Positions 2,163 through 55,361 of a DNA stretch of 64,000 nucleotides are shown here, one piece after another; within the stretch, counting starts at the first letter, position 1; every line of letters starts with the position of its first letter. The position numbers were made by a program, and so were the translations under genes. The DNA comes from an uncultured Gemmatimonadaceae bacterium (GTDB taxonomy: Bacteria > Gemmatimonadota > Gemmatimonadetes > Gemmatimonadales > Gemmatimonadaceae). Under the pieces are notes generated by a model. That model was given only the letters and a program-made list of their open reading frames with translations, made no database searches and was not told the DNA's origin. The stretch covers positions 14,307-78,306 of the forward strand of contig CAWAGQ010000012.1 of NCBI GenBank assembly GCA_963781585.1, read 5' to 3'.

Positions 2163-3349
2163 GATCCGATGCGTTCAGAGATTCGTGACAGATAGCCGGA
2201 GTAGTTTCGTCGCGTCTCGTTGAGCGAGTCGCCGCCGAATTTCTCGAGCCAGGCCTGCGCCAGGACGAACGCGACCATTGCTTCCGCGATGACACCCATG
2301 GCTGGAACGGCGGTCACGTCGCTTCGTTCAGCCGTGGCGGCCGCGGCTTCACCGGTGGCGACATCGACGGTGCCGAGCGGGCGCATGAGAGTGCTGATCG
2401 GCTTCATCGCGACGCGCACGACCAGGGGTTCACCGGTCGTCATGCCTCCTTCGGTGCCACCGGCCCGATTCGTGCGCCGGCGAACGTTGCCGGTGCGAGT
2501 GCTTCCGGGTGCGCCCTCGATCTCGTCGTGTACTTCCGCGCCGGTGCGTCGCGCCGTGTTCATGCCCAGGCCGATTTCCATCCCTTTGACGGCGGGGATG
2601 GAGAGCAGCGCCGCGCCAAGTCGGCCATCCAGCTTGCGGTCCCACGACACGTGGGCGCCGAGGCCAACGGGGAGTCCGTCGGCGACCACCTCGCAGATTC
2701 CGCCGAGGGTGTTGCCGGTGGCTTTCACCTCGTCGATGCGGGCGATCACCCGGCGTGCCGCCTCCGGGTCGAGCATCCGGACGGGAGAGGCGTCGGCCCC
2801 TTCATTAATATTGTCCGGCATCGGGTCGGGCGGCGTCGCGTCGATGCCGCCGAGATGGGTGACGTGACTCCCGATACGCACACCGAACTCGGCGAGCAGG
2901 CGTTTGCAGATCGCGCCGGCGGCGACTCTGGCGGTGGTCTCACGCGCCGACGCGCGTTCCAGAATGTCCCGTGCGTCTTCGCGGTCGTACTTGAGCAGGC
3001 CGGTGAGGTCGGCGTGGCCGGGACGAGGTCGGGTGACGGCGCGGCGGCGGGGTGACGGATCGCCCTCACGAACCCCGGGGTCCATGATCTCCTGCCAGTT
3101 GGCCCAGTCGCGGTTGCGGATGAGCATCGCGATCGGCGAGCCTAACGTCTCGCCGGCGCGAACGCCGGCGAGGAATTCGATCTCGTCGTGCTCGATCTGC
3201 ATGCGACGGCCCCGCCCGTAGCCCTGCTGGCGCCGGGCGAGTTCGCGATTCACGTCGTCGCCGGCGAGGGGCAATCCGGCGACCATCCCCTCGAGGACGC
3301 TCACCAGCGCCGGACCGTGTGATTCTCCCGCCGTCACGAAGCGCAGCAT
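2159..3349 (-). CDS. aroC: chorismate synthase
   Basis: MLRFVTAGESHG start, RPRPGHADL, ERASARET, MKPISTL, RSDVTAVPA. Confidence 0.98.
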   Translation of the reverse strand: MLRFVTAGESHGPALVSVLEGMVAGLPLAGDDVNRELARRQQGYGRGRRMQIEHDEIEFLAGVRAGETLGSPIAMLIRNRDWANWQEIMDPGVREGDPSPRRRAVTRPRPGHADLTGLLKYDREDARDILERASARETTARVAAGAICKRLLAEFGVRIGSHVTHLGGIDATPPDPMPDNINEGADASPVRMLDPEAARRVIARIDEVKATGNTLGGICEVVADGLPVGLGAHVSWDRKLDGRLGAALLSIPAVKGMEIGLGMNTARRTGAEVHDEIEGAPGSTRTGNVRRRTNRAGGTEGGMTTGEPLVVRVAMKPISTLMRPLGTVDVATGEAAAATAERSDVTAVPAMGVIAEAMVAFVLAQAWLEKFGGDSLNETRRNYSGYLSRISERIGS

Positions 3350-3356
3350 AGTCTCC

Positions 3357-3394
3357 GCAAAAACGCGAGCCCGACCAGGGAAGTCGGGCTCGCG
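3357..3394 (-). terminator. intrinsic terminator after the pilQ-lipoprotein unit
   Basis: 12-bp stem cgcgagcccgac/gtcgggctcgcg followed by TTTTT on the minus strand. Confidence 0.75.
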
Positions 3395-3425
3395 AAGGAC
3401 GTCTCGTGAAACCAGCGCGCTCGGC

Positions 3426-5879: not shown

Positions 5880-5897
5880 CGTCAGGACTCCGTAGCG

Positions 5898-7901
5898 TTA
5901 TTTCGAACCGTTGCCCGGCGGGCGAATCGCCGCGCCTTCGTCGATGATGTGTGGCGTGATCAGAATCAGCAGGTCCTGCTTGATCTCCTGGCTGTCGGTC
6001 TGCGAGAAGAGCCGGCCGAGGAGCGGGAGATCGGACAGAATCGGGATGCCGGACCTGTTCTTGGTGACCTGGGTTTGCGTGAGGCCGCCGATGACCGCCG
6101 TCTCGCCGTCGTTGACGAGGAGCTGGGTGGTGGCGTTCCGCTTGTCGATGTTGAAGCCCAGGTCGCCGCCGATGATGTTGAGCGAGGACTGTTCGGCCTC
6201 GATCGTCATCCGGATCTGGCGGTTGTTGGTGATATGCGGGGTGACCGTGAGGATGATACCGGTCTCCTTGAACTGGACGTTGGCGCGGACCGGCGCGCCG
6301 ACCTGGGCCGCGGCACCGGCGTCGATGACGCGGACCGGGGTTTCCTGGCCGACGAGGATCCGGGCCTGGCGGTTGTCGAGCGTGGTCACGCTCGGTTCGG
6401 CCTGGATGTCGGACAACTGCTCCGAGCGCAGGGCGTCGATGAACGACGTGAGGCTGTATTTGCCGAGGGCGGTGGAGAACAGGATGTTGAGGGCACTCCC
6501 GTTCTTGTACTTGCGCTGGGCATTGGCGACGCCGGCCAGCGCGTCGCCGCCTAACGAAACGCGGCCTTCGCGGTCATCCACGGTCGTCTCGGCACCCGGC
6601 TTGTTGCGGGGCAGCAGCGTATTGAAGTAGGACGAGGCGCTGCCGAGGTCGTAGCTGACCCCGAGCTGTTCGATCGACGTACGGTTCACCGAGATGAGCT
6701 TGGCCTTGAGCACGACCTGCGGGGTTCGCACGTCGAGCTGCTTGACGTACGTCATCAGGGCCGGGAGGCGCGAGGTGACTTCGGTGATGATCAGCGAGTT
6801 CGTGCCGCTGTCGGCGGCGACGTTGCCGCGAACGAGGCACCACGCCTGTCCCGGCTGCTGGTTGCCGGTGGCGGGCGGGGGTGACTGCGGACAGTCCTTC
6901 GACAGCAGTCCTACGATCGTGGGGACGAGCGACGAGGCCGACACGTAGTTGATGTTCACCATCTGGGTGGTGAGCGGTTCGCTGGCCTGCCGTTCGAGGA
7001 TGTTCTGGTAGCTATCGACCGTGATGATGCCGGTGGAGTCTTCGGTGGCGGCGAGGCCCTGGGACTCGAGAATCGCCTTCAGCGCGACGTCCCACGGCTG
7101 ATCCTTGATCTCGGCGGTGATGGTTCCGGTGACGCTCTTGCCGACCACGATGGTCCGGCCGGTCTGGGCGGCGAAGCCCGCGATGACGTCGCGGATATCG
7201 GCGTCCTGCCAGGACACCGTCACGCGCTGCTGCTGCGACTGTTGCGAGAAGAGGGGGACCGGATCACGCAGCGCCTGCTGGGTGACCGGAGTGGTGGGCG
7301 CCGCGCGATCGCTGGTGATGGCGGGGACCGCGAGGGTCGGCGGTGCGACCGCGGAATCGATCACTTCCCCGCCGGCGTCGGACACGGTACTCAGCGCGAC
7401 GGCCGGTCGCTCGACGACGGGGGCAGCGGCGACCGCCGCGCCCTGGTTTTGCGAATGCCAGGCCGCGAATTTCTCCGGGGTGGCCAGGGAGATGCGCACC
7501 TCGGCATCACTGTGCGAGACGACGTAGGTGTGCGGGACGTCGAGATCGAGCACGATGCGAACGATGTCGGGCCGATACTGCGAGATCCTTATATTCAGGA
7601 TGCCGCCCCGCGCCTTGCGGTCGTAGCTCCGGTCGAGCGCCGTGAGACGCGCGCCCGAGAGATCGACCACGATGCGATGCGGGGCTTCGACGGTGAAGTC
7701 CTGGACCGACACCGGCCCGGACAGGGCGATGATGACGTCCGCGCGACCGTCGGCCGGCACGACGCTGAGCGCCGTGACGGCGCTTGCCGCGGCCCGCGCG
7801 GTGCGGGCGGACGGCACGGTGAGGTGCGCGGCACGCGCGCGCCCGGCGCTGATGCCCAGCGCGAGCGCCGACAGCGTGGCCAGCGTACAGACTCGCCTCA
7901 T
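5898..7901 (-). CDS. pilQ: type IV pilus secretin with AMIN domain
   Basis: N-terminal AMIN (PHRIVVDL...VRIVLDL), WDVALKAIL, secretin core TLDNRQARILVG...GIPILSDLPLLGRLF. Confidence 0.96.
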   Translation of the reverse strand: MRRVCTLATLSALALGISAGRARAAHLTVPSARTARAAASAVTALSVVPADGRADVIIALSGPVSVQDFTVEAPHRIVVDLSGARLTALDRSYDRKARGGILNIRISQYRPDIVRIVLDLDVPHTYVVSHSDAEVRISLATPEKFAAWHSQNQGAAVAAAPVVERPAVALSTVSDAGGEVIDSAVAPPTLAVPAITSDRAAPTTPVTQQALRDPVPLFSQQSQQQRVTVSWQDADIRDVIAGFAAQTGRTIVVGKSVTGTITAEIKDQPWDVALKAILESQGLAATEDSTGIITVDSYQNILERQASEPLTTQMVNINYVSASSLVPTIVGLLSKDCPQSPPPATGNQQPGQAWCLVRGNVAADSGTNSLIITEVTSRLPALMTYVKQLDVRTPQVVLKAKLISVNRTSIEQLGVSYDLGSASSYFNTLLPRNKPGAETTVDDREGRVSLGGDALAGVANAQRKYKNGSALNILFSTALGKYSLTSFIDALRSEQLSDIQAEPSVTTLDNRQARILVGQETPVRVIDAGAAAQVGAPVRANVQFKETGIILTVTPHITNNRQIRMTIEAEQSSLNIIGGDLGFNIDKRNATTQLLVNDGETAVIGGLTQTQVTKNRSGIPILSDLPLLGRLFSQTDSQEIKQDLLILITPHIIDEGAAIRPPGNGSK

Positions 7902-8509
7902 TTCGTCCTCTCTTTGTTGGAATCACCCAGCGCCAGCGTTTCCTGGCGGCTGAAGCCGAATTCTTCGATGGTGAACGTCACTGCCTTGGGATCGATGCGC
8001 GCGACCCGGATGCGGCCTAACGTCTGGCCGACGCGGACGCGATACTGTTCCTTGGTGCTCAGGTCCCGGAGGATGGCGACCGAGCTGCGTCCGGAGGCGT
8101 CGTAGACGATGCCCGACACCTGCAGGTCGGTGATCACCGGGCGGAGTTCGCCGGTGGCCATCAGCGAGACGAACGGATCGCGCCGCCCGTCGGGCTGGTA
8201 ACTGAAGACTTCCCGGTCGAAGGTGCCGGCCGGGCGCTCGACCGAGGGGACGGCGGTGCTGCCGGCAGCGCTCTCCGTCGCCCGGCCGGATGCGGCCGCC
8301 TGCGCCGAGTCGGCCGAGGCCGCGGGCGGCTTGCCGCCCTGCGCCGGCATCGAGTCCTGATTGGCGGTCATGGTCGCCGTGTGGGCGTTGGTGGCCTGGA
8401 CGGCTCGCTTCGCCGCTTCCTTGGATTTGGTGATGGGAGGCAGCGACTGGGCCGGCAGGGTGCCGGCCGCGAACAGCCCGAGCAGCACCGTGAAGCGCGC
8501 GCGACTCAT
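7898..8509 (-). CDS. pilP: PilP-like pilus assembly protein
   Basis: Start MSRARFTVLLGLF; RRDPFVSL and YRVRVGQTLG motifs; between pilO and pilQ. Confidence 0.7.
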   Translation of the reverse strand: MSRARFTVLLGLFAAGTLPAQSLPPITKSKEAAKRAVQATNAHTATMTANQDSMPAQGGKPPAASADSAQAAASGRATESAAGSTAVPSVERPAGTFDREVFSYQPDGRRDPFVSLMATGELRPVITDLQVSGIVYDASGRSSVAILRDLSTKEQYRVRVGQTLGRIRVARIDPKAVTFTIEEFGFSRQETLALGDSNKERTK

Positions 8510-9120
8510 GACTTCCCTCCCCGCGCCGCGGGCGCGGACCTGATCACGTAGGTCTGGATTTCGAATTTCGACTCGATCGCCGCGGTGCCGGGACGAACCA
8601 GCTTGACCGCGGTGGCGTTCGGGTTGGTGGCCGGCGCCAGCGACAGATTCACCGGCGCGACGATTCTGGTCAGCGAGCCCACATTGCTGAGGAACGCGCC
8701 TAACGCGTGGAAGCCGCCGGTGACGGACACCTTGTAGCGATAGGTATCGAACATCTCGCCCTCGATCACGGGCTGCGGCTCCACGGCCGAGATGTCGAGC
8801 CCGGCGCGGCGCGCCGAAGTCGAGACCTGCTCGAGGAGCGACGGGAGCTCGTTGCCGGTGGGCACCAGCTGGCGCATCACGTCCAGGTCGCGCGCGTACT
8901 GCTCGGCTTCCTTCTGCACGTCGCCCGCCGATCCCTTGGCCGTTTCGGTCCGGGCGCGGTCGTTGGCGTGCTCGAGCGAATCCACGCGGACGGTGAGGGT
9001 CGCCAGCTCCGTCTGCTTGGGCGAATAGACGTACATCCAGTACAGGGCAGCCAGCGCCACCGCGATGATGCAAACCAGCACCATCGCCTGGTCACGCTGA
9101 TTCTTGGGCAGGAGTGCCAT
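8506..9120 (-). CDS. pilO: type IV pilus alignment protein PilO
   Basis: TM segment, coiled coil, LVPTGNELPSLL, VTGGFHALGAFL. Confidence 0.9.
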   Translation of the reverse strand: MALLPKNQRDQAMVLVCIIAVALAALYWMYVYSPKQTELATLTVRVDSLEHANDRARTETAKGSAGDVQKEAEQYARDLDVMRQLVPTGNELPSLLEQVSTSARRAGLDISAVEPQPVIEGEMFDTYRYKVSVTGGFHALGAFLSNVGSLTRIVAPVNLSLAPATNPNATAVKLVRPGTAAIESKFEIQTYVIRSAPAARGGKS

Positions 9121-9122
9121 GG

Positions 9123-9830: not shown

Positions 9831-9851
9831 CGTTATGCGCTCAGAGAGGAC

Positions 9852-11318: not shown

Positions 11319-12593
11319 CTACGGCAGCTCGGCCCACGCGCGTTCTTCCACGCGTTTGAGCAGCGCCGAGCCGTATAGCGCGCTCTCCAGTCCGCAGGCG
11401 GAGTACCGGATCAGCCCACCACTTCCTATGACGCTGTGGTCGCCTGGCGCCAACCGGGAATCACTCGCGAACGCCGCGCCGACAATCGATCCGCCGCCCG
11501 CCCCGGTGACGATGTCATCGCGCGCGATCACCAGCCCCACGAACGACGCGCCCGCCACCAACCGCACGTCGCCCTCGGCCAGCAGGATTCCCTGCCCCCT
11601 CCCACCAGCGATCGTCACATCGCCGCGCGCCCAGATGACCGGGAAGTAATCGGCGCAGGGCGACGCCCGGAACGGATCGCCCCAGTTGGCCGGGACGCCG
11701 CGCTGGCACGCTCCGGCTGACGCCTGGGGAGCGGGGGTCACCGAGACGTTAGGCGGCAGGACGACGTCGGCGTCGGCGGCGAGAGACTGCCAGGTCCGAT
11801 CTCCAAAGACCAGATAGCGCAGCGAGTCGGCGGCGGCCGGATCCTCCAGCCGGGGAGGAAGCCCCCGTACGTTCCCGGCGGACGCTCCGCCGCAAGTGCC
11901 GTCGCAGATGGCCAGCGTGTCAGGAGCCGCGACCCCGGCGATCGATGGCGACGGTGTCGCGCAGGACGCAATCACGCCCGGACCCGCGACTACGCTGTCG
12001 GCCCCTTCCACCCGTCCGCCGGTTTCCACTTCGACGCTGTCGCGCGCGGTCAGAGCCGCCGCCACATCCGGCTCTGCCAGATTGAGCCGGTAGAGTACGT
12101 TCACGAGCCGGCGCGCATCGGCACCGAGCGAGGCCGCGCCGGCGGTCCCCTCGCTCGCCACCCAGAACGACACCATGCTGCTGCGCGTGGCCCGAGCCAC
12201 GGCCGTGGCCCCAGCCAGGGCCGTGGTGAACGGGCCCAGCGTGCCTCCGACCGCGGTGGACAGGCTCAGGTCCGGAGTCCAGTCGCGCATGAGCGCGGTG
12301 GCCCCGTACTCTGCCGCCTCGAGCGCCTGCCGTTCGCTGAGCGCATTGTGACCGGCGCGCGCCTCCTGCATGGCGAAGAACGCCGAGCCGGCGATGAACA
12401 GCGAGACGACCGCGAGCGAAATCAGTGCCGCCGGCAGCGCGATGCCGCGACGAGGCGGCCGGCTGGCCGGCCCCGGCACGCAGGCGGCGGAGAGACTGAT
12501 CGGCTGGTCCGGCGCGACGGCGAAGATCCGATTTGCGGGAGTTCGAGTCCAGCGGGATGCCGCCCGCGAGGCGGCGTGGGTGAGCGTTTTCAT
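11319..12593 (-). CDS. pilX: PilX-like minor pilin
   Basis: RRG|IALPAALISL prepilin-like start lacking E5; ALEAAEYG motif. Confidence 0.7.
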   Translation of the reverse strand: MKTLTHAASRAASRWTRTPANRIFAVAPDQPISLSAACVPGPASRPPRRGIALPAALISLAVVSLFIAGSAFFAMQEARAGHNALSERQALEAAEYGATALMRDWTPDLSLSTAVGGTLGPFTTALAGATAVARATRSSMVSFWVASEGTAGAASLGADARRLVNVLYRLNLAEPDVAAALTARDSVEVETGGRVEGADSVVAGPGVIASCATPSPSIAGVAAPDTLAICDGTCGGASAGNVRGLPPRLEDPAAADSLRYLVFGDRTWQSLAADADVVLPPNVSVTPAPQASAGACQRGVPANWGDPFRASPCADYFPVIWARGDVTIAGGRGQGILLAEGDVRLVAGASFVGLVIARDDIVTGAGGGSIVGAAFASDSRLAPGDHSVIGSGGLIRYSACGLESALYGSALLKRVEERAWAELP

Positions 12594-13546
12594 CTGCGAT
12601 TCCTCAACGCGATGATCGATGCCAGGGAGTCGGTGCGGACCCCGCGTACCACGCCGTCCAGGCGCACTGCGCCGCGGGTCAGGGCGCGTGCCGTCACCGA
12701 CAGTCGCGCGGCCGCGGCAGGCGGGAGACCCGGCGGCAGCTGCACGCCCAGCGAGTCCCAGGCCGCGAACGCGATTCCTCCGGCGCCGGGCCGGGCGCGG
12801 TTATACGGTACCAGCCGGTCGCTCACGGGCTGAATCACGTTCCAGGCTGCTGCGGCCGGATTCCAGTCCGCCCAGCCAAGAGCGGTCTCTCCGGTAGACG
12901 TGCGATAAAGCGCGAATCGCGAAAGCCGCGTTAGGCGGACGGTCGTACCTGCCGCGATGGTGGCCGGGAGCGACGTGGCAGCACTCAACGTCAGTCGCCA
13001 CCCGACGCGGCCGGCATCGAGGACCGGATCGACGAAGGGCGTGCCGGCGCAGGCGCCCGTCAACGGTACGGCGCTGATCACCAGGGCCGGTACCCATCGG
13101 TCGTCCGATGACGCCGGCAACGCGCCTTCGTCGCGTACCCAGATCGAGTCCCCCGCCCGCGGACGGGACGCGAAGCTGGCCAGCCGCTGACCGCTGGCGA
13201 CCACGCTTGGCGCCAGATCGACGAGGGTCGGTGCCACCGCACACGCCAGGGCGCTGCCCGCCAGCGAGCGGTAGACGATGGCCGAGTCGGTGATGCCTGC
13301 GATGTCGCCGGCAGCGCTGGATGCGGACCGCAGTTCTTCGGCAATCGCGTCGTGCGCCGCGGACATCTGCGTGCGGGTCTCGAGGATGCGGTTGATGCCA
13401 TCGTGGAACCGTGCCTGCCGATCGAGGGCGCGCACCATCGCGCCGGCGACGACGCCGAACACGGCGAGCGCCACGATCAGCTCGATGAGGGAGGTGCCGC
13501 GGGGCCCTCGACGCCGCACCGCGGACCACGCCGTCACGGATCGCAT
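12590..13546 (-). CDS. pilW: PilW-like minor pilin
   Basis: RG|TSLIELIVALAV prepilin cleavage/methylation motif; 318 aa. Confidence 0.7.
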   Translation of the reverse strand: MRSVTAWSAVRRRGPRGTSLIELIVALAVFGVVAGAMVRALDRQARFHDGINRILETRTQMSAAHDAIAEELRSASSAAGDIAGITDSAIVYRSLAGSALACAVAPTLVDLAPSVVASGQRLASFASRPRAGDSIWVRDEGALPASSDDRWVPALVISAVPLTGACAGTPFVDPVLDAGRVGWRLTLSAATSLPATIAAGTTVRLTRLSRFALYRTSTGETALGWADWNPAAAAWNVIQPVSDRLVPYNRARPGAGGIAFAAWDSLGVQLPPGLPPAAAARLSVTARALTRGAVRLDGVVRGVRTDSLASIIALRNRR

Positions 13547-41535: not shown

Positions 41536-44500
41536 GTGTCACTCGTCTCGATCGCCGTCCGCCGCCCGGTTTCCACGGTTGCCGCCACCCTGGGCATCGT
41601 GCTGCTCGGTTCGGTGTCGTTAGGCCGCATGCCGGTCTCGCTGCTGCCCGACGTCACGCTGCCGGTCCTGACCATCCGCACGCTGTACCCGGGGGCCGCC
41701 GCGCCGGAGGTCTCGCGGTTCGTGGCCGAGCCGATCGAGAAAGTCGATCGCCGCGATGCCCGGGCTGGTGGAGCTGCGCTCGGCGAGCCGGAACGGCGAG
41801 GTGACCACCACGGCGCGGTTCTCGTGGGGCACCGACATGCAGACCACGCTGCTCAACATGCGCGAGCGGCTGGACAACGCGCGCGGAAGCGCTGCCGGAG
41901 CGCGCCGAGCGGCCCACGCTCCTCACCAGCGACCCGGGCGAGCGCCCGATCGCCGTGCTCAGCCTGGGCATCCAGGGCAGCCTGCGCGACCTGGCGCGGA
42001 CCGCCGAGGACGTCTACGCACGCCGCCTGGAGCAGATCGCCGGGGTCTCCGAGCGTGGCGGTGGTGGGCGCGCCGGACGACGAGATCCGCGTGGAGGTCG
42101 ATCCCGAGCGGATGCGCGCGCTGGGCGTGACCAGCGACGACATCGCCCGCGCGATTCGCGCCGAGAACGCGACCGGAACCAGCGGGACCATCCGGCGCGG
42201 CCAGTTCCGCTTCACGGTGCGGACGATGACCGAGTTCCGCACGCCGGACGAAATCGGGGAGACGCCGGTGGGGCGGGCGGGGAGCGGCATCAAGCTGCGC
42301 GACCTGGCGGCGATCGACGTGACCACGGCCGACCCGCTCACGCTCACGCGCCTCGACAGCAAGCCGGCCGTGGGGCTGGTGGTCTACAAGGATGCCGGCG
42401 CCAACACGGTTTCGGTGACGAGCGAGCTGGAGAAGGTGGTGGGCCAGCTCCGCACCGAGTTTCCCGGCATCACGCTGACGATCGTGGCCGAGCAGGCACA
42501 GTTCGTGTCCGCGGCGCTCGGCAACCTGTGGCAGGAGATCATCGTCGGCGGGCTCCTGTCGCTGGGCGTGATTCTGCTGTTCCTGCGGGACTGGCGGCTC
42601 TCGCTGGCGATCGGGATGATGGTGCCGCTGTCGGTGCTGGTGGCGCTGGTGATCCTGCAGGGGATGCACGTCACCATCAACGTTCTGTCGTTAGGCGGGC
42701 TGGCGCTGGGGGTCGGCCTGCTGGTGGACAACGCCATCGTGGTAGCCGAGGCGGCGGTGCGGAAGCGGGAGGAGGGGCTGCCGCTCGACCAGGCGACGCT
42801 GATCGCCACCGAGGAAGTCTCGGGGCCGCTGATCGCCGGCACGCTCACCACGCTGCTGGTGTTCGGGCCGATCATCTTCGTGCGCGGGCTGGCGGCGGTC
42901 CTGTTCCGCGATCTCTCGCTGTCGGTGGTGATGAGCGTGGGGGCGTCGCTCATTCTCGCGCTGACGCTGATGCCGGTGATGGTGATCGGCCGCCGCCGCG
43001 CTTCGCTGAGCCAACCGGATCGGAAGCGACCGGTGCGTGCAGGGCGCGGCGTCGGATCGACGCACCCACCCGGCAGTCCCGACGGCGGTCGGCCGCCAGC
43101 CATCTCGCTGGTCACGGGCATCGGGGCGCGCCGGAGACAGGCTGGCTCCGGTGGTTCACCGCCATGGGCGAGTGGTTCGAGGGGCAGTACACGCGCGGGA
43201 TGAAGTGGTCGCTGGCGAATCCCGGTCCCCGTGCTCGTGATCACGGTCGGCGTCGCTGGCGTTCACCGTGTGGGTCACCATGCGCCTGCCGCGCGAGATC
43301 CTGCCGCAGGTACAGGAACGGGTGGTGGTGGCATCGCTGCAGCTCACCGAGGGGACGGCGATCGAGGAAACCACCCGCCAGGTGGCCCGGCTGGAGGACG
43401 CCGCTCACGCGTTAGGCTCGACGAATGTGTACAGCCGGGTGGGCGATCGCCACCGACGAGGAGATCCTGGCCGGCGCCGAGCCGGGGACGTCGGCTACCG
43501 CGCAGCTTATTCTCCCGGTGCCCGCGCGCGGCGACGCGCTCGGCTTCGCCGATGCGCTGCGGCGCGCGGTCCCCGACCTGGCCCAGGGCGCGCTGGCGCT
43601 CGACGTGGCCGGCGCCTCGGAATTCGGGAGCCTGATCGGGCGCGAAGGCCGGGTGGTGCGGGTCGAGATCAGCGCCCACACCGTCGAAGAAGCCGAGGTG
43701 TGGGCCGACACCGCGCGGGCGCGCCTGCGCGGGGTGTCGTCGCTCTCCGACGTGCGCGACGCGCAGGAGGGGCTGCAGCCGGTGGTAGAGGTGACGCTCG
43801 ATCGCGACCGCATCGCCCAGCGCGGACTGTCGTGTGGACGCGGTGTCGAACGCGCTGGCGGGCGGACTGGGGGGGGTCGACGCCAGCGAGCTCCGCGAGA
43901 CCGACCGGCGCACCCCGATCACCGTGCGGTTCGCGGGCGCGGCCAACGAGAACCTGGCCGCGGCGATGAACACGCTGGTGGCGGGCGTACCAGTGGCGCA
44001 GCTGATCCAGGTCAACGAGACGAAAGCCCCGATCGAGGTCGTGCGCGTGGGTCAGCGCCCGGTGGTGGCGGTGGAGGCGCTCATCGAACGCGGGGGCACC
44101 AGTCACGCGTCCGACGATGTCTCGCAGGTCATGTCCTCGCTCAGGATGCCGGTGGGAGTGAGCTGGACGGTGAGCGGGGCCAACGCCGAGCAACAGCGCA
44201 CTACCAACGAGCTCACCCTGGTCGCGATCCTGTCCGCCGCGCTGATGTTCCTGGTGCTGGCCGGCGAATTCGCCTCGTTCACCGTGCCGCTGGTGGTGAT
44301 GCTCACCGTCCCCCTGGCGGCCGCCGGCGGTCTGGTGTTCCTGTGGATGACGGGGCAGAGCATCAACGCGGTATCGCTCATCGGCATCGTCGTCATGATC
44401 GGCATGGCCGACAACGAAGCGGTGGTGAAGCTCGACGCGGTGCGCCGGTTCCGCGAGATGGGCCACTCGATCGAGGACGCCGTCTTGTTAGGCGGGCACC

Positions 44501-44847: not shown

Positions 44848-44851
44848 TCGC

Positions 44852-47800
44852 ATGATCCGCTGGGCGGTATCCCGTCCTGCCGTCGTATGGGCCACGAGCA
44901 TCACCATCGTGCTGGGCGGAGCGGTGGCGTTCACGCGGCTGGTCCTGGGCTCGGCGTCGGTGGAGCTGCCCAGGCTGAACGTGTCGATACCGTGGCCGGG
45001 TGCCGCGGCCGAACTGGTCGAGATGTACGTCGCCACGCCGGTGGAAGCCGCGATTCAGAGCGTGCGCGGGGTGCGCAAGACGCACAGCGATTCCAACGAG
45101 GGCATGGTGGCGCTCACCGTGGAACTCGAGCCCCGCGCCGACGTGCAGATCACGCGGCTGGCAATCCTCGAGCGGCTCGAGCTGCTGCAGCCGACATTCG
45201 ACTCGCTGCGAATCGGGCGCCCGTCGGTCACCAACTATGTGCCGAAGGACCTGAGCGAGGAGCCGCTCATCACGCTCTCGATCAACGGGCCGTATACGGC
45301 CGGGGCATTGGTCAAGCTCAGCACCGACGTGCTCGAGCCGCGCCTGTCGGCGGTCCCGGGGGTGGCGGGGATCGGGACGCAGGGCGGCACGTCACTGGGC
45401 GTTTCGGTTGCCTACGACCCGAGTTTTCTCCGACAGGTGGGCGTGGCGCCGGCCGCGGTCCAGGCGGCGCTGCTGCGCGCGCGGGTGGTGCAGGCGGTGG
45501 GCGACGCACAACAGGGTTCGATGGAGCGCGAGGTCACGATCCGCGATCAGCCGAACGTGATTTCGGATCTCGACAAGCTGCCGGTGATCGGCCGGGCGGG
45601 CCGCGTGTTCCGGCTGGGCGAGCTCGCCACGGTGCGTCCGGACGAAGACGCGAATGGGGCGTTCTACCGCGTGGACGGCCAGCCGGCGGTGATCCTGCAG
45701 ATCTCCCGCCTTCCGGGTTCGGACGCGATCAAGACCGCGGCGGCGGTGCGGGCCGCGCTCGCCGAGCTCAAGCCCAAGCTCCCGCTGGGCGTGCGTCTCG
45801 AGATCCGGAACGACACCAGCGAGGACATGGCGCACGACCTGCGCGATCTGCTGACGCGTGGCGCGATCGCGTTCGGCGCGGTCATTCTGGTCATCGCGAT
45901 CATGTTGCGCGACGCGCGCGCGGTGGCACTGGTGATCGGGAGCGCGGCGGTGGCCATTTCCGGCACCGCACTGGGGCTGTTCATCTTCAGGATCCCGGCG
46001 AACATGCTGACGCTGGCGGGGCTGGCGATGGGCATCGGAATACTCGTGCAGAACGGGCTGGTGGTGGCCGAGCGACTGGGGACGGTGCCCGATTCGCCGC
46101 GAGCGCGCGGCGACGCGGCGGCGCGCATCACGCCGGCGGTGATCGGCGCCACGATGACGACGGCGGTGGTGCTGTTCCCGTTCCTCTATCTGCAGGGCGA
46201 CACGCGGGCGGCGTTCGTCCCGTTCGCCTCGGCGTTCGCGATGGCGCTCGCCTGGTCGGTGCTGGCGTCGGTGGTGATGATCCCGGCGCTCGCCAAGGGG
46301 CACCGGATCCACGAGGCCAGCTGGCCCCGGATCCGACACGTGTACGCGCGGATCATCGCGCCCCTGATCCGGTGGCGGTGGATCACGTTAGGCGTGACGG
46401 TGCTGGCGCTCGGCGGACTCACCTGGGTGTTCGTCAAGAAGGTGCCGCGGTTCTCGTTCTCCGGCTTCGGGCAGCAGCGCACCTATCTCACGGCGTCGAT
46501 CAGCTTCCCGCGCGGCTCCGATCCCGAGGGCCTCGACCGGTCGATCCGCGAGCTCGAGGACATCGCCGTCGGCAAGCCGGGCGTGGAGCGGACGCAGGCC
46601 TACTCGGGAGGGAGCACCAGTGCCTTTCTGAACGTGATGTTCACGCACGAGTCGGAGTACTCAGCGCGATTCCGCTGGAGATGGAAGAGCTGATGACGCA
46701 GCGGGCGGTGCTGATCGGGGGGGCGAATGTGAGTGTGCACGGCCAGGGGCCGGGGTTCTACTCGGGGATGGGGTCGATGGGGATGGCGTCGTTCCGCATC
46801 CGGGTGCTGGGGTACTCGTTCTCGGGCGTGGAGGCGCTCGCCAGGGATCTCAAGGAGCGCCTGGAGCGCATCCCGCGGGTGCGCGACGTGGACATCGGCA
46901 CCACCTCGTTCGGCTACGGCGGCGGGGAGAAGGCGTTCGCGATCACCATCGAGCCCAATCGCGCCGTGCTGGCGCAATACGGGCTCACGGCGCAGGACCT
47001 CACGTACGCGGTGGGCCGCGAGATCCGCGGCGCCGCCGGGCAGATGCGGCTCGAGATCGGGGGCGAGGAGATCAACGTCCGCCTCAAGACGTCGGGATCA
47101 CGCGAGCGCACGCTCAACGAGCTGCGCGACGCGATGATCCCGACGCCGTCCGGCGGATCAGTGCGCCTGAGCGCGGTGTCGAACGTGAGCGAGCGCGAGG
47201 CGCTCAGCACCATCAGCCGCGAGGACCAGCAGTTCATCCGGGTGGTGGCGTACGAGTTCCGCGGTCCCAACAAGCTGGCGCAGCGCACCCACGACGCGTT
47301 CATGAAGACCGTCAGCACCCCGCCGGGCTACACGGTGGAGGACGCGGCGTACAGCTTTTACGGGCAGGACAAGAGCGAGCAGGGGCTGTGGCTGGTGTTC
47401 AGCATCGGGATCGTGCTGGTGATTCTGTCGGTGGCGCTGGTATTCGACTCGGTCTGGGCGGCCGGCGTCGTGTTCGCCAGCCTGCCCGTGGCGTTAGGCG
47501 GGGTGGTGGCTGATCTTCTGGCTGGCCAACGCGGCATTCACCCGCGAGGCGGCGGTCGGGGTGATCCTGGTGGTGGGACACGCGGTGAACCAGGCGATCC
47601 TGCTGGTCGACTCGGCGCTCCAGAAGCGGCGCGCCAACCGCCGGCGCGGGGCGCCCGGGCTCGGCATCCGTCAGGTGCTGCGGTCGGCGCTCGACCGCGG
47701 GGGGATGATCGTCCTGGTCACACTCAGCACGCTGGCCAGCCTGCTCCCGCTGGCGATCGGGACCAGGACGACGTCGCTGTTCGGGGCGATCGCGCTGGCG

Positions 47801-47881
47801 GCGGCGGGCGGGATGACGGCCGGCACGTTAGGCGCGCTGTTCGTGGTGCCGGCGATGCTGGTGGGGCGGCGCCGGCGGTGA
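44852..47881 (+). CDS. RND transporter permease subunit 2 (frameshifted near 46660 and 47510)
   Basis: WAVSRP, TLAGLAMGIGILVQNG, ATMTT, LLPLAIG...LFVVPAML. Confidence 0.9.
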
Positions 47882-51693: not shown

Positions 51694-52914
51694 ATGTCAA
51701 TCCCGGCGCAGACAGCGTGGGTTCACGCCTTCGCGGGAGACGCCGTGCGTACGGCAGGCCGCATCATCGCCCTGGTCGCGGCAGTCGCGTCCTCATCCGA
51801 AGCCGTCGCCCAGGAGGGCCGTCTGGTCGCGAATGACCAACCGGCGTCCGAACTCCAGTACGAGTTCACGCAGGTCCCCGGCGTGTTCGAACTCCGCGAC
51901 GGAAGGGTCGTGGTCGTAGACGAAGGCGATGCGTCGATCGGTATCGTGGACTTCCGGACAGGGCACCTGACGGTACTCGGACGCCATGGGGCCGGCCCCG
52001 CCGAGTATCGGATGCCGACCGTGATATACCCGTTAGGTGGCGATAGCCTGGCCGTACTCGATGACGCCGACGGGAGACTGCTCGTGATCGCACGCGACGG
52101 GAAGGCGGGCGGGTTCCTCTGGCCGCGCTCTCACCAGCCGGAAGCCGCCGGTATCGCCGCGACGACGGGCGACGGACGCGGGTTCCTGTACGGCGTGGCG
52201 CCCCCTGCGAAGCGAACGAGCGGCGGAGAGCTCGTGCTGACGGATTCTGCCCCGGTCCTCCGGTGGCCATTGGTGGGCGGACCGGTCGACACCGTTGCGG
52301 TGATCTATCGACCGCCGCCACACGGCGCCGTTGCCTCGCCATACGGCGCGATCGCGACACCGGGTAATGTCCCGGCACTGCTCACTCGGGACAGATGGGC
52401 TGTCTCCGGAGACGGGCGCGTTGCCGTGATGCACCACGATCCGTTTCAGGTCACCTTCACCTCGGCTTCCGGCGTTCGAGAATCGGGTCCCGTCATCTCG
52501 TACCTCAGACAACCGGTGACCGACTCCGTCAAACGCGCGTATCTCTCGGAGCGGGACATATCACGTGGCCTGATGGTGAACGCGGATGGATCCGCGGTTC
52601 CGATCCGGAGACCGCCGTCCCGGCGAATCGCGACCAGCTGGGCCGAGGAAGTGCCTCCGTTTCTCCCCGAGGCATTCCTTGGTTTTGACGGCAATGGAGT
52701 TCTGTGGGTGCAACGACCGACGTTCGGTCGCGAGGGCGCGCGGTACTATCTCATTGGTTCGGATGGGGCGGTGACCGATCGGATTCGCTTCCCCGAAGGA
52801 TTTCGAGTGGTGGGCTTCGGCCGTAACGCCATGTACCTGGTTCGGCGTGACCTCGACGACTTGGAGCATCTGCAACGTCGTCCATTGCCCAGCCGACCGG
52901 GACGGCGTCCCTGA
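51694..52914 (+). CDS. secreted 6-bladed beta-propeller protein (paralog of 36562-37749)
   Basis: ELRDGRVVVVD, LGRHGAGPAEY, DRWAVSGDGRVAV, DLDDLEHLQR. Confidence 0.8.
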   Translation: MSIPAQTAWVHAFAGDAVRTAGRIIALVAAVASSSEAVAQEGRLVANDQPASELQYEFTQVPGVFELRDGRVVVVDEGDASIGIVDFRTGHLTVLGRHGAGPAEYRMPTVIYPLGGDSLAVLDDADGRLLVIARDGKAGGFLWPRSHQPEAAGIAATTGDGRGFLYGVAPPAKRTSGGELVLTDSAPVLRWPLVGGPVDTVAVIYRPPPHGAVASPYGAIATPGNVPALLTRDRWAVSGDGRVAVMHHDPFQVTFTSASGVRESGPVISYLRQPVTDSVKRAYLSERDISRGLMVNADGSAVPIRRPPSRRIATSWAEEVPPFLPEAFLGFDGNGVLWVQRPTFGREGARYYLIGSDGAVTDRIRFPEGFRVVGFGRNAMYLVRRDLDDLEHLQRRPLPSRPGRRP

Positions 52915-53027
52915 CCGCCGGCACGTTAGGCGCGTTGTTCGTGGTGTCGGCGATGCTGGTGGGCCGGCGCCGGCGCGCTCCGCGTCCCGCGGTTCCCACC
53001 GCGTAGCCCGGCCCGGAACGACATCGG
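52912..53027 (+). repeat. third copy of the RND2 3' tail joined to the downstream repeat
   Basis: 52912-52975 matches 47814-47877; 52976-53027 matches 49782-49834. Confidence 0.93.
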
Positions 53028-53049: not shown

Positions 53050-53111
53050 CGGTCACTTCATTTTCCACCCACGGTCCCCGTCAGCGGCTGGCTGCGCCCG
53101 CGGAGATGGCC

Positions 53112-53888
53112 TCACGGCTTCTTGATCAGCGCCGTGATCTCGGGGGGCGGCACCACTTCCTTGGGATCGACCACGTCCCATTCCCACGAGGTCATCGTCA
53201 TCACCGACCGCTGGCCCTGCGTCTCGGATGTCACCTTGGTGGGGCGCTTCATCCCGCCAAAATCCTTGTACTCGCTCTGGTACGTGGTCCCCTCCACCTC
53301 GCCCATCGGCGTCGACGCCTTGGCCGTGGAGGCAATCAGGAAACCGTCGGATACCGCGAAACAGTCGGTGGTGATGTTGCCCGACTTCCAGGTGTGCTTC
53401 ACGCGATAGCAGTCCTGGCCATTGATCGTCGTCTTCTCCAACGTCTCGGAGCTGACGATGTTGGCCGACGTGCGAAGCGAGTTCTCGGGGTCGGCCTGTT
53501 CCTTGATCGCATCGGCCATGGCGCCGGTCAGCACCTGCGGACCGGTCATCGGGTTGACGGACCACGCGGTGGTACCGTCATATCCCTGTTTGATCTCGCC
53601 GAGACCGCCGAGCGTCACCGTCGACGACACGGCATTCGGGAAGATCTGCACCACTTCCATGGTCGCCGACATTCCAGCGGTCGGCACTTCCATGGTCGCC
53701 TTCATGCGCGCCGACTTGTGCTGCTTCCAGACATCGCCGCCGACGGCCTTGGCGTACCTGGCAATGAGATCGGCCGCCGCCGGAAGACCGGCCGCAGCGT
53801 CCTGGGCGTGCACCGGCGGCGCAACGAGCAGCATCGTCAGGCCGGCGTAGGACAAGGCGTGGCCGGCGCGCCGGAACAGGTCGGACAT
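53112..53888 (-). CDS. secreted hypothetical protein (LolA-like fold suspected)
   Basis: Signal peptide; YAKAVGG, QGYDGTTAWSVNPMTGPQ, YKDFGG; strong codon bias. Confidence 0.7.
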   Translation of the reverse strand: MSDLFRRAGHALSYAGLTMLLVAPPVHAQDAAAGLPAAADLIARYAKAVGGDVWKQHKSARMKATMEVPTAGMSATMEVVQIFPNAVSSTVTLGGLGEIKQGYDGTTAWSVNPMTGPQVLTGAMADAIKEQADPENSLRTSANIVSSETLEKTTINGQDCYRVKHTWKSGNITTDCFAVSDGFLIASTAKASTPMGEVEGTTYQSEYKDFGGMKRPTKVTSETQGQRSVMTMTSWEWDVVDPKEVVPPPEITALIKKP

Positions 53889-53983
53889 GGAATCCCCCTC
53901 TGAGCGGAAAGCGAGCGAGGTTGCCCGCTGAACAGAACTGTAACTGAGCGGCTCGATCGCCGCCCGTCCTGATACGGTTGTCG

Positions 53984-55361
53984 CTACCGAAGGTTGCCGC
54001 GTGCGGTGTGCCGGCGGCGCTCCAGGCCGAGCCAGTGCAGCGCAGCGGCCAGGGTCTCATCGCGCCCGGCCAGCAGCGCGTTCCGGCGCAGCGGTACCAG
54101 CTCATCCGGGACGATTCCCTTCCCCTCCAGGCGGCGACCCGAGGGGTCCACGAAGTCGGCCACGGCGTACTGGAGCGCGTCGCCGTTCGGCAGCCGCGTG
54201 ATGAGACTCGGCAGGGCCTCACCGGCTGTGGTGTCGCCGAAGATCCGCGCCCGGCCGTACTTCTGGAGCGCCGCCACGAAGATCTCGGTCGTGCTCGCCG
54301 ACAGTTCGTCGACCAGCACGGCGAGCGAGCCCGCGTACGGCGTCACCGGGGTGCCGTCGCGCGTCACGCGACGCGGATTCGCCACGTAGCGGAGCGTCGC
54401 GCTCCGCATGTGCAGCTCGCCCAGGAGCAGCTCGTGATCGACGAAATGCCCGGTGATCCCGATCACCATGGCCGCCACGCCCCCCACGTTCCCTCGCAGG
54501 TCCAGTACGATGCCGTCGCACTGGCGGAACTCGTTCATCGCGTCGTCGAACGGCTGCGCGATCGCCGTCATCCAGACGTTGAACCGGATCACGCCCACGC
54601 ACCCGCCGCGCTCGTCAATGCGTCGCCGATCGAACCAGGTCGGCACCGGCGGCAGCTGGCCCAGCCGCACGACGGTGCCTGGCGCGTCGCGCCGCACCAG
54701 GTCGCGCTCGACCAGGATGCCGGCGCCGTCGCGAAACGTCAGGTGCACGCCCGATCCAGGGGCGCCGTGGAGCATCCGCACCGCGTTCAGCAGCCGGCGC
54801 AGGGCCGCGACCTTGGCGTTAGGCGACGCGCCCGCCGCGCTGGAGGATCGCGCGGCCGCATCAAGCGTGTCGAGCGCAACGACGGTCCATCCGGGAGACA
54901 CCCCCGCGCGCGCCGCCGGGCCGGTCGAGTCGACCCCGGAGACCACAAGCTCGTCGCCGATGTATCGCACCTCGAATCCCAGGTCGCCGGGCGCATCGGC
55001 AGCCGCCTGGCCCTCATCCGAAGACGGCTCGCCGGCGACGATCCCGAAGTGCGAATCGCCGAGCGTGGCCAGCATGCGACCCATGGCGGCCCGCGATTCC
55101 TCGCGGGTGCGTGCGCGGGCCACCTGTGGCCGGATCTCGTCGCGGACCCGGTTCCAGTCGAGGCCGTGCATGGTGGAGTCGTAGTAGGTGTCGCGGATCC
55201 GGCGCCACGCGCTGTCGAACGACGCGAGCTCGAGGGCCGTGTCGATCGGCCGCGGCCGCGGTACGCGCGGACTGCGCCCTGACCGCACGAGGTGGCGCGG
55301 CCGAGACGAGAAGCACCCCAACGATGAGGGCGCGGGCAGTACGAGTGGCGCGGCTTACCAT
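53984..55361 (-). CDS. S41 family (tail-specific) peptidase with PDZ domain (frameshift near start)
   Basis: LGDSHF, IVLDLRGNVGG, VLVDELSASTTE, GDTTAG, LEGKGIVPD. Confidence 0.92.

Follow-up and report, generated by a model that had tools for sequence, protein, structure and literature searches.

A hyper-abundant asymmetric octamer in a Gemmatimonadaceae genome and scattered relatives, written into genes by way of rare codons

Introduction

To our knowledge, sequence-specific 'self' uptake tags have been described in just two families of Proteobacteria, and hyper-abundant genome words of obscure purpose mainly from cyanobacteria (HIP1). The genomes of Haemophilus influenzae and Neisseria meningitidis, which carry such tags, are about 2 Mb in size. 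Uptake-sequence copies are given as 1,471 in H. influenzae and 1,892 in N. meningitidis (PMC2817400), and about half of the DUES (the DUS of Neisseriaceae and the USS of Pasteurellaceae) are reported to lie in terminators (bioRxiv 10.1101/2025.10.24.684340). Findlay and Redfield describe uptake sequences as following a codon-cost rule, genes without homologues as being also without uptake sequences, and peptide frequencies as about doubled in the known systems (PMC2817400). HIP1 is described as 15- to 300-fold over-represented, conserved within and between ORFs and non-randomly spaced, with no peptide or RNA role in that account (PMC5861425).

Here we describe CGTTAGGC, an octamer of the genome of a soil Gemmatimonadaceae bacterium, 5.7 Mb in 17 contigs (G000). 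The Gemmatimonadota are an abundant, major soil phylum that has barely been cultured, and within it CGTTAGGC is a clean, asymmetric word of the same strength.

Results

Copies in the window

The window, that is, the whole 64-kb stretch of DNA analysed, contains 18 exact copies of CGTTAGGC, 11 on the + strand and 7 on the − strand, each starting where the earlier note, which had counted at least 18, had placed it. None of 100 dinucleotide-preserving shuffles of the window reached this number (mean 1.12, maximum 5).

Exact copies of CGTTAGGC:
3140..3147, − strand: sense in aroC, ACG-TTA-GGC (Thr-Leu-Gly); orthologous site recoded in several clades
6549..6556, − strand: sense in pilQ, TCG-TTA-GGC
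8015..8022, − strand: sense in gene 7898-8509 (pilP position), ACG-TTA-GGC
8698..8705, − strand: sense in gene 8506-9120 (pilO position), GCG-TTA-GGC
11747..11754, + strand: antisense to gene 11319-12479, which reads CCG-CCT-AAC-GTC (Pro-Pro-Asn-Val)
12929..12936, + strand: antisense to pilin-like gene 12590-13537, which reads CGC-CTA-ACG (Arg-Leu-Thr)
14128..14135, + strand: between called genes
19077..19084, − strand: 5' edge of ORF 17074-19218, upstream of the chosen start
25253..25260, − strand: sense xCG-TTA-GGC in gene 24977-25327
28630..28637, − strand: sense xCG-TTA-GGC in gene 28378-29028
41618..41625, + strand: sense xCG-TTA-GGC in first RND permease gene
42689..42696, + strand: sense xCG-TTA-GGC in first RND permease gene
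43410..43417, + strand: uncalled (frame-shifted) middle of first RND gene
46386..46393, + strand: sense xCG-TTA-GGC in second RND permease gene
47492..47499, + strand: tail of second RND gene, near a coding-frame change
47826..47833, + strand: tail of second RND gene; the locally best frame reads xCG-TTA-GGC
52924..52931, + strand: 10 nt downstream of the stop codon of gene 51694-52914
54817..54824, + strand: antisense to S41 peptidase gene 53984-55321 (Pro-Asn frame)
Variants of CGTTAGGC:
38603..38610, − strand: one-mismatch CGTTAGGT
44486..44493, + strand: one-mismatch TGTTAGGC
52031..52038, + strand: one-mismatch CGTTAGGT
48893, strand not given: near-copy AGTTAGGC
CGTTAGGC-free stretch:
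55000..64000: GC reduced to 0.60-0.64; DDE transposase at 56790-57659

By our own gene calls, 10 of the 18 copies read xCG-TTA-GGC in sense, in agreement with the view that most do, and 1 lies in sense but in a different frame, within a frame-shifted RND gene. The antisense copies are the three that had been claimed (11747, 12929 and 54817), and four are intergenic or at a gene edge (14128, 19077, 43410 and 52924), the first of them lying between genes as proposed. The orientation of CGTTAGGC switches with gene direction four times along the window. Nothing matches exactly beyond 55 kb, as had been noticed for a part that includes the mobile region, the last copy starting at 54817. All four reported near-copies are present, with two of their starts corrected (38604 to 38603 and 48889 to 48893). 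A 'duplicated RND tail', by contrast, was not recovered at the DNA level: the region 41000-48500 holds two tandem, fragmented RND permease paralogues and no direct repeat of at least 40 nt.

Genome-wide abundance

The whole G000 genome carries 1442 copies (724 forward and 718 reverse), where Markov models of order 0, 1, 2 and 3 predict 217, 89, 44 and 51, an excess of about 30-fold. In the 8-mer ranking that the earlier note had suggested, CGTTAGGC comes out as the most over-represented octamer of the genome (z = 196). It is present on all 17 contigs at 0.19-0.34 per kb and accounts for 47% of all TTAG tetramers. Read from the sequence, the word is asymmetric, its reverse complement GCCTAACG being different, and hence no palindrome. 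Three one-mismatch variants, each a single transition away, are also enriched genome-wide (CGTTAGGT 7.8-fold, TGTTAGGC 5.2-fold and CGTCAGGC 2.7-fold), so that some mutational flow around CGTTAGGC is visible.

Codon use and reading frames

TTA, said from the outset to be scarce otherwise, makes up 0.9% of Leu codons in G000, and half of its occurrences (745 of 1472) sit in CG-TTA-GGC. When synonymous codons were shuffled within each gene genome-wide (30 rounds), 19.4 ± 4.3 sense and 29.5 ± 4.6 antisense copies were expected, compared with 786 and 343 observed; the enrichment thus survives the codon shuffling named beforehand as its test.

By context, 742 of the 1442 copies read xCG-TTA-GGC in sense, 268 are antisense as CCT-AAC and 72 antisense as CTA-ACG, while 40 read GTT-AGG in sense and 320 are intergenic or at gene edges. 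CGTTAGGC occupies all four stop-free reading frames as well as intergenic DNA, and the four frames are all in use also in the denser genome G009 (33/27/26/9). Among compatible peptide sites, the word is present at 32% for xPN[VADEG], 15% for [STPA]LG, 2.9% for [SRCG]LT and 1.2% for xVR[LPHQR], a saturation that tracks codon cost or rarity and not strand. Peptides are only slightly affected in G000 (observed/expected 1.12 for PN and 1.12-1.25 for [AST]LG). CGTTAGGC enters proteins mainly via synonymous recoding to rare codons and acts at the DNA level, in either orientation and regardless of transcription, frame and replication direction. These data bear out the proposal of a lineage-specific DNA-level signal that is imposed on coding sequence via rare codons and that codon choice is insufficient to explain.

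Flanks, spacing and strand

Flanking preferences are weak (≤0.3 bit per position), restricted to −1 (G/T) and +8 (purine), alike in coding and intergenic copies, and recur in G001, G009 and G297. The commonest 16-mer containing CGTTAGGC occurs 5 times. CGTTAGGC is a discrete word and not a repeat element; a dispersed repeat of the REP or MITE kind was rejected, as no conserved sequence extends beyond the core.

CGTTAGGC avoids close neighbours of itself: gaps shorter than 500 bp between G000 copies number 68 versus about 172 expected, and the same depletion is present in G297 and G009. Pairs less than 200 bp apart number only 20 in G000, and the word is not concentrated in inverted pairs. Convergent spacers hold 0.35 copies per kb versus 0.25-0.27 elsewhere, with no concentration in terminators.

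Since G000 is in 17 contigs, local GC skew was used to assess polarity. By this proxy the skew relative to replichores, which the earlier note had proposed to check, is absent, both in the orientation of intergenic copies by GC-skew sign (61/63 and 31/38) and in site saturation, which is equal for leading- and lagging-strand genes (15.9 versus 16.2%; 32 versus 35%). Lacking replication-strand polarity, CGTTAGGC is therefore not Chi- or KOPS-like.

Density increases with gene GC3, rising six-fold from 0.067 per kb in the lowest decile to 0.426 in the top one. G000 contains 31 deserts longer than 15 kb, several of low GC, and its low-GC islands are devoid of the word. CGTTAGGC is missing from foreign-looking DNA.

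Conservation and distribution

CGTTAGGC is conserved beyond neutral expectation. Over 343 kb compared at 87.5% identity with G001, a genome of the same genus, 63 of 81 G000 copies are kept versus 31.1 expected from phase-matched octamers, and 11 of 14 non-coding copies are kept. At orthologous Leu-Gly sites of AroC, PilP and PilQ, TTA-GGC is found in separate clades and CTC or CTG elsewhere.

The survey of related genomes suggested by the earlier note shows hyper-abundance confined, within the sample of the phylum, to scattered lineages of a single order, with top densities of 0.6-1.25 per kb, comparable to those of known uptake sequences. Separate clades belonging to three families share the identical octamer; a search for diverged dialects in G000, G001, G009 and G297 returned the same octamer and flank preferences. 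Counts contrast sharply within one genus, from 66 copies in G293 to about 4000 in G240 and G297. A 227-kb sample of G293, which is word-poor, yielded no replacement word, and most of 80 AroC loci yielded no alternative dispersed word.

Search for a reader protein

Components of a DNA uptake route are present in G000: pilM and pilQ lie in the window, pilin-like genes occur in the genome, and ComEC scores above cut-off (247 bits). Whatever their CGTTAGGC count, 40 of 41 genomes encode ComEC, and the genomes that lack ComEA-like proteins (present in 43 of 52) fall on both the word-rich and the word-poor sides. A single candidate receptor, a GspH/FimT-like pilin (C12:2042-2611), has full-length homologues in word-rich and word-poor genomes, pilins diverging too fast for this to exclude a receptor.

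Methylases were compared by presence or absence, and none follows CGTTAGGC. The sole C5 methylase and Vsr of G000 form an EcoRII-type system inside a CGTTAGGC-free island, and this Dcm-Vsr system occurs elsewhere only in the word-poor G002, G007, G019 and G034. Enzymes of the Eco57I/MmeI family read asymmetric sites; among 51 genomes of the order, 50 share an adenine methylase of this family (1076 aa) with an adjacent SNF2 helicase, the enzyme being equally present in word-poor ones and at similar identity. Orthologues of a 517-aa TaqI-like methylase were limited to 4 of 51 genomes, including a word-poor one, and no PF01555 or PF02086 methylase was found. Overall, no gene among the pilin, ComEC, ComEA-like, IntI, Dcm-Vsr and adenine methylase genes tested tracks the abundance of the word.

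Discussion

Among the analogies offered earlier, those with DUS/USS and with HIP1 stay good, whereas the polarity expected of a Chi-like word was tested and is absent. Every feature counted for an uptake tag also fits an intracellular reader with a spacing requirement.

The reading that we tentatively favour is that CGTTAGGC may be a double-stranded DNA recognition word, held at high copy across the resident chromosome and in scattered relatives of the order, with an uptake-tag function like that of DUS/USS. Like these, it is a short asymmetric word with hundreds to thousands of copies, equally on both strands, at up to about one copy per kb in the relatives richest in it; its coding copies lie in the frames of least codon cost, with others in spacers; it is absent from recently acquired genes and confined to particular lineages; and uptake machinery (type IV pilus, secretin and ComEC) is present, though not specific to word-rich genomes. 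It differs from them in the phylum of its host, in being identical in separate clades, whereas known uptake sequences drift into dialects, and in having no substitute in the G293 sample. Neither terminators nor inverted pairs are enriched in CGTTAGGC, and peptide frequencies are barely altered by it, whereas known systems about double them. Neisseriaceae, moreover, have a ComP-type minor pilin as receptor, and no receptor was found for CGTTAGGC, the one candidate tested having homologues in word-rich and word-poor genomes alike. In a type IV pilus/ComEC route, a surface or periplasmic part would preferentially bind fragments that carry CGTTAGGC, and alleles gaining the word would more often enter other cells and recombine there (molecular drive). 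In this way CGTTAGGC might spread in the core genome until about one copy is present per uptake-sized fragment, within limits set by codon and protein cost. Among the papers listed in a literature search, none dealt with natural transformation in Gemmatimonadota.

The main rival to an uptake tag is a HIP1-like word, an octamer that selection would maintain for some role inside the cell along the whole chromosome, for example in nucleoid organisation, repair or methylation marking, and that a resident DNA-binding protein or methyltransferase would read, with no link to uptake. We consider it possible but somewhat doubtful. HIP1 (GCGATCGC) of cyanobacteria is likewise an octamer in tens-fold excess (about 30-fold here), conserved in and between ORFs, independent of frame and strand, non-randomly spaced and without a peptide, RNA or expression role, and it too has close relatives with very low counts, as G293 is here; the near-universal Eco57I/MmeI-family methylase and SNF2 helicase could also be counted in favour. 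However, the palindromic HIP1 is linked to a pair of orphan methyltransferases, whereas CGTTAGGC is asymmetric and no methylase found tracks it by presence or absence, be it the Dcm-Vsr system or the 1076-aa and 517-aa enzymes. Its spacing effect is an exclusion below 0.5 kb, in a test that covered the short range, and not the periodicity of 10-90 kb seen for HIP1.

An extension of the uptake-tag reading appears improbable, namely that CGTTAGGC represents a third, independently evolved 'self' tag system, the first outside Proteobacteria, whose word was co-opted from the R' core of the integron attC sites that abound in this order, so that the same letters would serve uptake and cassette recombination. 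If true, this would account for the identical word and the lack of dialects in separate clades, and would tie transformation to integron gene capture in Gemmatimonadota.

Two further readings are very unlikely. The first is a Chi-like recombination signal or KOPS-like translocase guide, read from one direction by RecBCD/AddAB or FtsK. Octamer length, core enrichment and scarcity in foreign DNA are typical traits of Chi and KOPS, and CGTTAGGC shares them at a similar density, about one per 4 kb in G000. It differs in having no polarity with respect to GC skew, either in intergenic copies or in site saturation, and its orientation follows gene direction in the window; a Chi-like signal would not explain the short-range exclusion, and a congener lacks the word with no replacement in the sample searched.

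The second, to which we give equally little credence, holds that the copies are R-box (GTTRRRY) sites of an integron integrase, either secondary attachment sites or remnants of cassette recombination. The identity with GTTRRRY noted earlier is correct, as GTTAGGC lies within CGTTAGGC, and in the relatives G027 and G025 the word forms the R' end of real attC hairpins of ~100 nt, arranged on one strand at 500-650 bp spacing in cassette arrays. Among 41 genomes of the order, 26 encode an integron integrase that scores above the family cut-off, G000 included. The G000 copies, however, are not attC sites: an attC-like context lies upstream of only 1 of 1442, the flanks are not conserved, R''/L''/L' partners are missing, and 78% of copies lie in called, ordinary genes as in-frame synonymous recodings. 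The integrase gene of G000 (C7:185858-186859) has no adjoining cassette array, and intI does not track the word, with none above cut-off found in the word-rich G005, G009, G015 and G024 and with many word-poor genomes having it. An integron origin of the abundance of CGTTAGGC is thus largely refuted.

That the word has no function and is a by-product of codon-pair or dipeptide preference, mutation bias, very-short-patch repair or dispersed repeats has a negligible chance of being correct and is refuted, the enriched single-transition neighbours notwithstanding, by frame use with enrichment on both gene strands and in spacers, by codon shuffles that fall short by 12- to 40-fold, by an exclusion of nearby copies that no site-autonomous mutation process predicts and by conservation in G001 above the phase-matched baseline, non-coding copies included, and it is further opposed by unique flanks (no 16-mer with CGTTAGGC occurs more than 5 times) and by the only Vsr present being part of an EcoRII-type system whose occurrence does not follow that of the word.

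The on/off contrast within one genus (about 4000 versus 66 copies) offers a tractable system for finding the reader by comparative genomics and for learning what purpose such words serve. Should CGTTAGGC be an uptake tag, frequent within-lineage transformation in soil Gemmatimonadota would be implied, and the word would provide a handle for genetic manipulation of these hard-to-manipulate bacteria. It already serves as a marker that tells resident from foreign DNA in these genomes and that, in metagenome bins, points to integron arrays and to contigs that have been mis-binned or transferred.

Abundance and discreteness of the octamer

An exact count confirms the 18 copies of the octamer CGTTAGGC (on either strand; hereafter the word) that the earlier note had counted by eye and located in the window, whereas dinucleotide-preserving shuffles of the window average 1.12 copies and never exceed 5. 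The window belongs to contig C12 of the genome under study (G000; 5.72 Mb in 17 contigs, 67% GC, completeness 93.5%, contamination 7.2%), and its chorismate synthase has relatives exclusively in Gemmatimonadaceae or Gemmatimonadota metagenome bins. The genome holds 1442 copies of the word (724 forward and 718 reverse), with a density of 0.19-0.34 per kb on each contig, where Markov models of order 0, 1, 2 and 3 predict 217, 89, 44 and 51, respectively. No other octamer of G000 is as over-represented (z = 196, order 3), and 47% of all TTAG tetramers lie within the word. The ranking is by lower-order Markov models; maximal-order ranking masks the word, as higher-order models 'explain' it only because its sub-words stem from the word itself.

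The word is discrete and not a repeat element. The flanks of the 1442 copies are uninformative save for the three-base periodicity of coding sequence, a C disfavoured at -1 and a purine favoured at +8; the 319 intergenic copies display identical -1 and +8 preferences and no others, and no 16-mer spanning the word occurs more than 5 times. The same two preferences recur in samples from three other word-rich genomes (those with many copies, as opposed to word-poor ones), so that the recognised site probably covers ~10 bases, K-CGTTAGGC-R.

Imposition of the word on coding sequence

Genes of G000 were called with our own codon-likelihood caller (4440 genes, 85.8% coding), so that the 'intergenic' class includes some missed genes. 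Copies are found in four reading frames, the other two frames of the word containing stop codons.

Table. Coding context of the word in G000
Sense, xCG-TTA-GGC: 742 copies
Antisense, gene reading xxG-CCT-AAC-Gxx: 268 copies
Antisense, gene reading xGC-CTA-ACG: 72 copies
Sense, xxC-GTT-AGG-Cxx: 40 copies
Intergenic or gene edge: 320 copies

TTA accounts for 0.9% of leucine codons, and 745 of the 1472 TTA codons lie within CG-TTA-GGC; GGC comes next after 56% of TTA codons versus 2-7% for the other leucine codons. A tRNA-Leu(UAA) gene is present. The proposal of the earlier note that codon choice alone does not account for the enrichment withstands a synonymous shuffle within each gene, in which proteins, per-gene codon usage and TTA count are all preserved: 30 rounds yield 19.4 +/- 4.3 copies in sense and 29.5 +/- 4.6 in antisense, compared with 786 and 343 in the real genes.

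Saturation of compatible peptide sites by the word tracks codon cost, not strand. It reaches 32% for xPN[VADEG] (antisense) and 15% for [STPA]LG (sense), and falls to 2.9% for [SRCG]LT and 1.2% for xVR[LPHQR] in the remaining frames. In the denser genome G009, a relative, usage of the four frames is roughly even, at 33, 27, 26 and 9 of 146 copies, with 51 unclear. Taken together, saturation by codon cost and the use of four frames indicate that the association with Leu-Gly in sense is the product of common peptides and tolerable codons and is not a translational signal. For uptake sequences, the same codon-cost rule is reported by Findlay and Redfield (PMC2817400). Distortion of the G000 proteome is slight (observed/expected 1.12 for PN and 1.12-1.25 for [AST]LG), as is any peptide-level drive; the word is imposed at the DNA level.

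Maintenance of copies, orientation and spacing

Comparison with a genome of the same genus, G001 (400 kb compared, of which 343 kb aligned at 87.5% identity), shows that copies of the word are maintained. Among 81 aligned G000 copies, 63 are intact in G001, whereas all other octamers at matching codon phase predict 31.1; the 63 include 11 of 14 non-coding copies. Altered copies mostly differ by a single transition, in agreement with the genome-wide enrichment of the one-mismatch variants CGTTAGGT, TGTTAGGC and CGTCAGGC in G000. ACG-TTA-GGC encodes a Thr-Leu-Gly site of chorismate synthase (AroC) both in the window and at five further loci (L017, L077, L028, L031 and L079), and the leucine position of this site is occupied by CTC, CTG or ATC in the other loci; sites in PilP and PilQ show the same pattern of TTA versus other codons among orthologues. 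Such recoding implies that several clades have fixed or retained two-step synonymous changes to the rarest leucine codon.

Word orientation switches with gene direction four times along the window. By orientation, intergenic copies split 61/63 in regions of positive local GC skew and 31/38 in regions of negative skew, and site saturation is similar for genes presumed to lie on the leading or on the lagging strand (15.9 versus 16.2% for LG, 32.2 versus 35.1% for PN), polarity being judged by a GC-skew proxy alone in this 17-contig assembly. The lack of orientation or saturation skew by this proxy makes a Chi-like or KOPS-like function unlikely.

Copies of the word in G000 avoid one another at short range, with 68 gaps below 500 bp and 20 below 200 bp, against ~172 and 71 predicted by an exponential distribution of the same mean; gaps below 100 bp are likewise few in two other word-rich genomes (5 versus 15.1 expected in G297, 2 versus 15.6 in G009). 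The long-gap tail is heavy, with 31 deserts exceeding 15 kb that amount to 649 kb together, several of them low in GC. Genes of the lowest GC3 decile carry 0.067 copies per kb and those of the highest 0.426, a rise that runs counter to the AT-rich core of the word. Position inside genes is nearly uniform, with a small dip at each end, and no concentration in convergent spacers or inverted pairs was seen, nor any terminator arrangement. From 55 kb on, the window has lower GC, a DDE transposase and no copy of the word. The transposase (56790-57659, - strand), inside this word-free end, has weak IS1/IS240-type matches.

Patchy distribution among relatives

The word exceeds its reversed-word control in 11 of 40 relatives, including 3 of 8 genomes of family f3, and reaches 6360 copies in the 5.1 Mb of G009; most of the remaining relatives have 6-50 copies. 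Four unpublished genomes (G008, G085, G124 and G203) enter the tallies solely as word-poor rows, and no claim is based on them.

Table. Genomes with at least 150 copies of the word among 300 additional genomes sampled from the phylum, each at least 80% complete
Own family (f1): 11 of 70 genomes; G304 4469, G297 4141 and G240 3896 copies
Family f2: 5 of 125 genomes, all of genus g79
Nine other families, other classes included: 0 of 102 genomes; maximum 70 copies

Within a single genus, g51, the species G240 and G297 contain ~4000 copies each and a third species, G293, contains 66, an on/off difference that offers a natural contrast in the search for a protein recognising the word. No substitute dispersed octamer was found in a 227-kb sample of G293, whose top words are tandem heptamers. 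A candidate alternative dialect, TGCTGGGG, conspicuous in five AroC loci, proved to be a local repeat of ~150-bp period inside one gene and is not genome-wide; in L019, L021, L022, L025 and L052 it lies on one strand of a repeat-domain gene at ~14700-15960.

A quick IQ-TREE search of AroC covers the window and 74 of 80 loci, after removal of six that have fewer than 330 aligned residues. Loci bearing the word form about four clades, and their label requires 6 changes, of which well-supported branches force only 2. On this single-gene tree, either one origin followed by many losses or several gains may account for the pattern.

Candidate readers of the word

In the window, the genes from pilM to pilQ, together with pilin-like genes, form a type IV pilus block adjoining aroC (2159-13537, - strand), which contains, in block order:

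12590-13537, - strand: pilin-like gene with an N-methyl motif
Between the pilin-like gene and pilM, - strand: 386-aa gene
9852-11003, - strand: pilM
Between pilM and pilQ, - strand: three small genes that occupy the pilN/O/P positions
5898-7901, - strand: pilQ
Between pilQ and chorismate synthase, - strand: 817-aa gene
2159-3466, - strand: chorismate synthase (aroC)

A GspH/FimT-like minor-pilin cluster is located ~10 kb upstream of the window (C12:2042-3917), and ComEC is present in G000. Candidates were screened in the 40 relatives and in a panel of 51/52 genomes picked by word count, in which neither groups and counts nor kin are independent; these presence/absence comparisons are screens, not statistics.

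No tested candidate separates word-rich from word-poor genomes. ComEC is present in 40 of 41 genomes and ComEA-like HhH proteins in 43 of 52; full-length homologues of the GspH/FimT-like minor pilin occur in word-rich and word-poor genomes alike, and the presence of the integron integrase (TIGR02249) does not follow the word. The sole Dcm-Vsr belongs to a system of EcoRII type that sits in an island lacking the word, and is found elsewhere in word-poor genomes only. This system (C7:476337-479892, L092) comprises a 779-aa fused C5-methylase and Vsr protein and an EcoRII-like endonuclease, within a 24.6-kb word-free stretch. A 1076-aa Eco57I/MmeI-like adenine methylase with a SNF2 helicase shows no link to the word, occurring in 50 of 51 genomes; in G000 the methylase (C6:144469-147699) adjoins the 800-aa SNF2-type helicase, the pair spanning C6:142082-147699 (L154). 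Enzymes of restriction type are not usually retained so widely, here over three families in one order. Orthologues of a 517-aa TaqI-like methylase are present in 4 of 51 genomes, and no PF01555 or PF02086 methylase was found in G000.

Possible functions

The results as a whole point to a recognition word in double-stranded DNA that works in either orientation and is retained in resident DNA by selection or drive. As a working model, the uptake sequences of Neisseriaceae and Pasteurellaceae come closest, a reading put forward tentatively and by analogy. Biased uptake machinery together with homologous recombination would spread the word; a single copy on each imported fragment would be enough, leading to short-range exclusion and a ceiling of ~1 copy per kb; codon cost would decide where new copies land, and foreign genes would be without the word. 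However, neither dialects of the word, a receptor among the candidates screened nor a terminator bias was found, and the proteome is little distorted. Moreover, a literature search outside subscription journals, covering the word itself, the word with Gemmatimonad* and competence in the phylum, found nothing relevant among the papers listed and gave no report of competence.

The main rival, an intracellular word comparable to HIP1, is somewhat less probable. HIP1 is likewise over-represented and conserved, with its function unknown (PMC5861425). Explanations by Chi or KOPS, by integron sites or by artefacts are unlikely or refuted. New here are the saturation rule across four frames, the lack of polarity, the exclusion of close neighbours and the dependence of density on GC3. 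The spread, patchy, limited to one order and contrasting between species of a single genus, is also new, as are the identity with attC described below and the negative results for candidate readers.

The word as the end of integron attC sites in relatives

In two word-poor genomes, G027 and G025, most copies recur every 500-650 bp on one strand, where the word forms the 3' end of a conserved ~100-nt repeat whose ends, ...GCCTAAC and GTTAGGC..., pair. The bottom strand of this repeat folds as an imperfect hairpin (z = -2.9 to -4.4). Judged by sequence and predicted fold, these repeats are integron attC sites in cassette arrays. The arrays are chromosomal (L081, G027:C95:1-20000; L082, G025:C3:1-9000), with attC of ~100 nt, an R' end of CGTTAGGC and hairpins of two sequence classes; comparable one-strand runs occur in G146, G096, G100 and G090.

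Integron integrases score above the family cut-off (TIGR02249) in 26 of 41 genomes, G000 among them (C7:185858-186859, 434 bits), and none above cut-off was found in the word-rich G005, G009, G015 and G024. An attC origin was rejected for the G000 copies, of which 1 of 1442 has an attC-like context, with no cassette array beside intI. The rarity of this context, an integrase gene without an array and the lack of an above-cut-off integrase in those four word-rich genomes argue that the genome-wide word does not consist of attC sites.

A region close to intI (C7:165000-187000) looks mobile and contains two copies (C7:172353 and C7:182952) of a two-gene element, encoding a 301-aa tyrosine recombinase and a 389-aa product, which are identical to a third copy at C13:309021. 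Both C7 copies have one CGTTAGGC directly past the recombinase gene.

Other repeats and paralogues

The earlier note had placed the word inside a duplicated tail of RND permeases; no DNA-level duplication of at least 40 nt was found in the tandem pair. Each of the two paralogues (41536-48039, + strand) is split across at least two reading frames, with switches of coding frame near 44850, 46700 and 47400; they are either pseudogenes or affected by assembly frameshifts.

Short tandem heptamers, (GGCCAAA)n and near variants, occur at 22201-22256 of the window and form 56 arrays of at most 119 bp in G000, and G293 has different arrays, (AGAAAGC)n and (TGAACCC)n. Such species-specific heptamer arrays resemble the STRR repeats of cyanobacteria.
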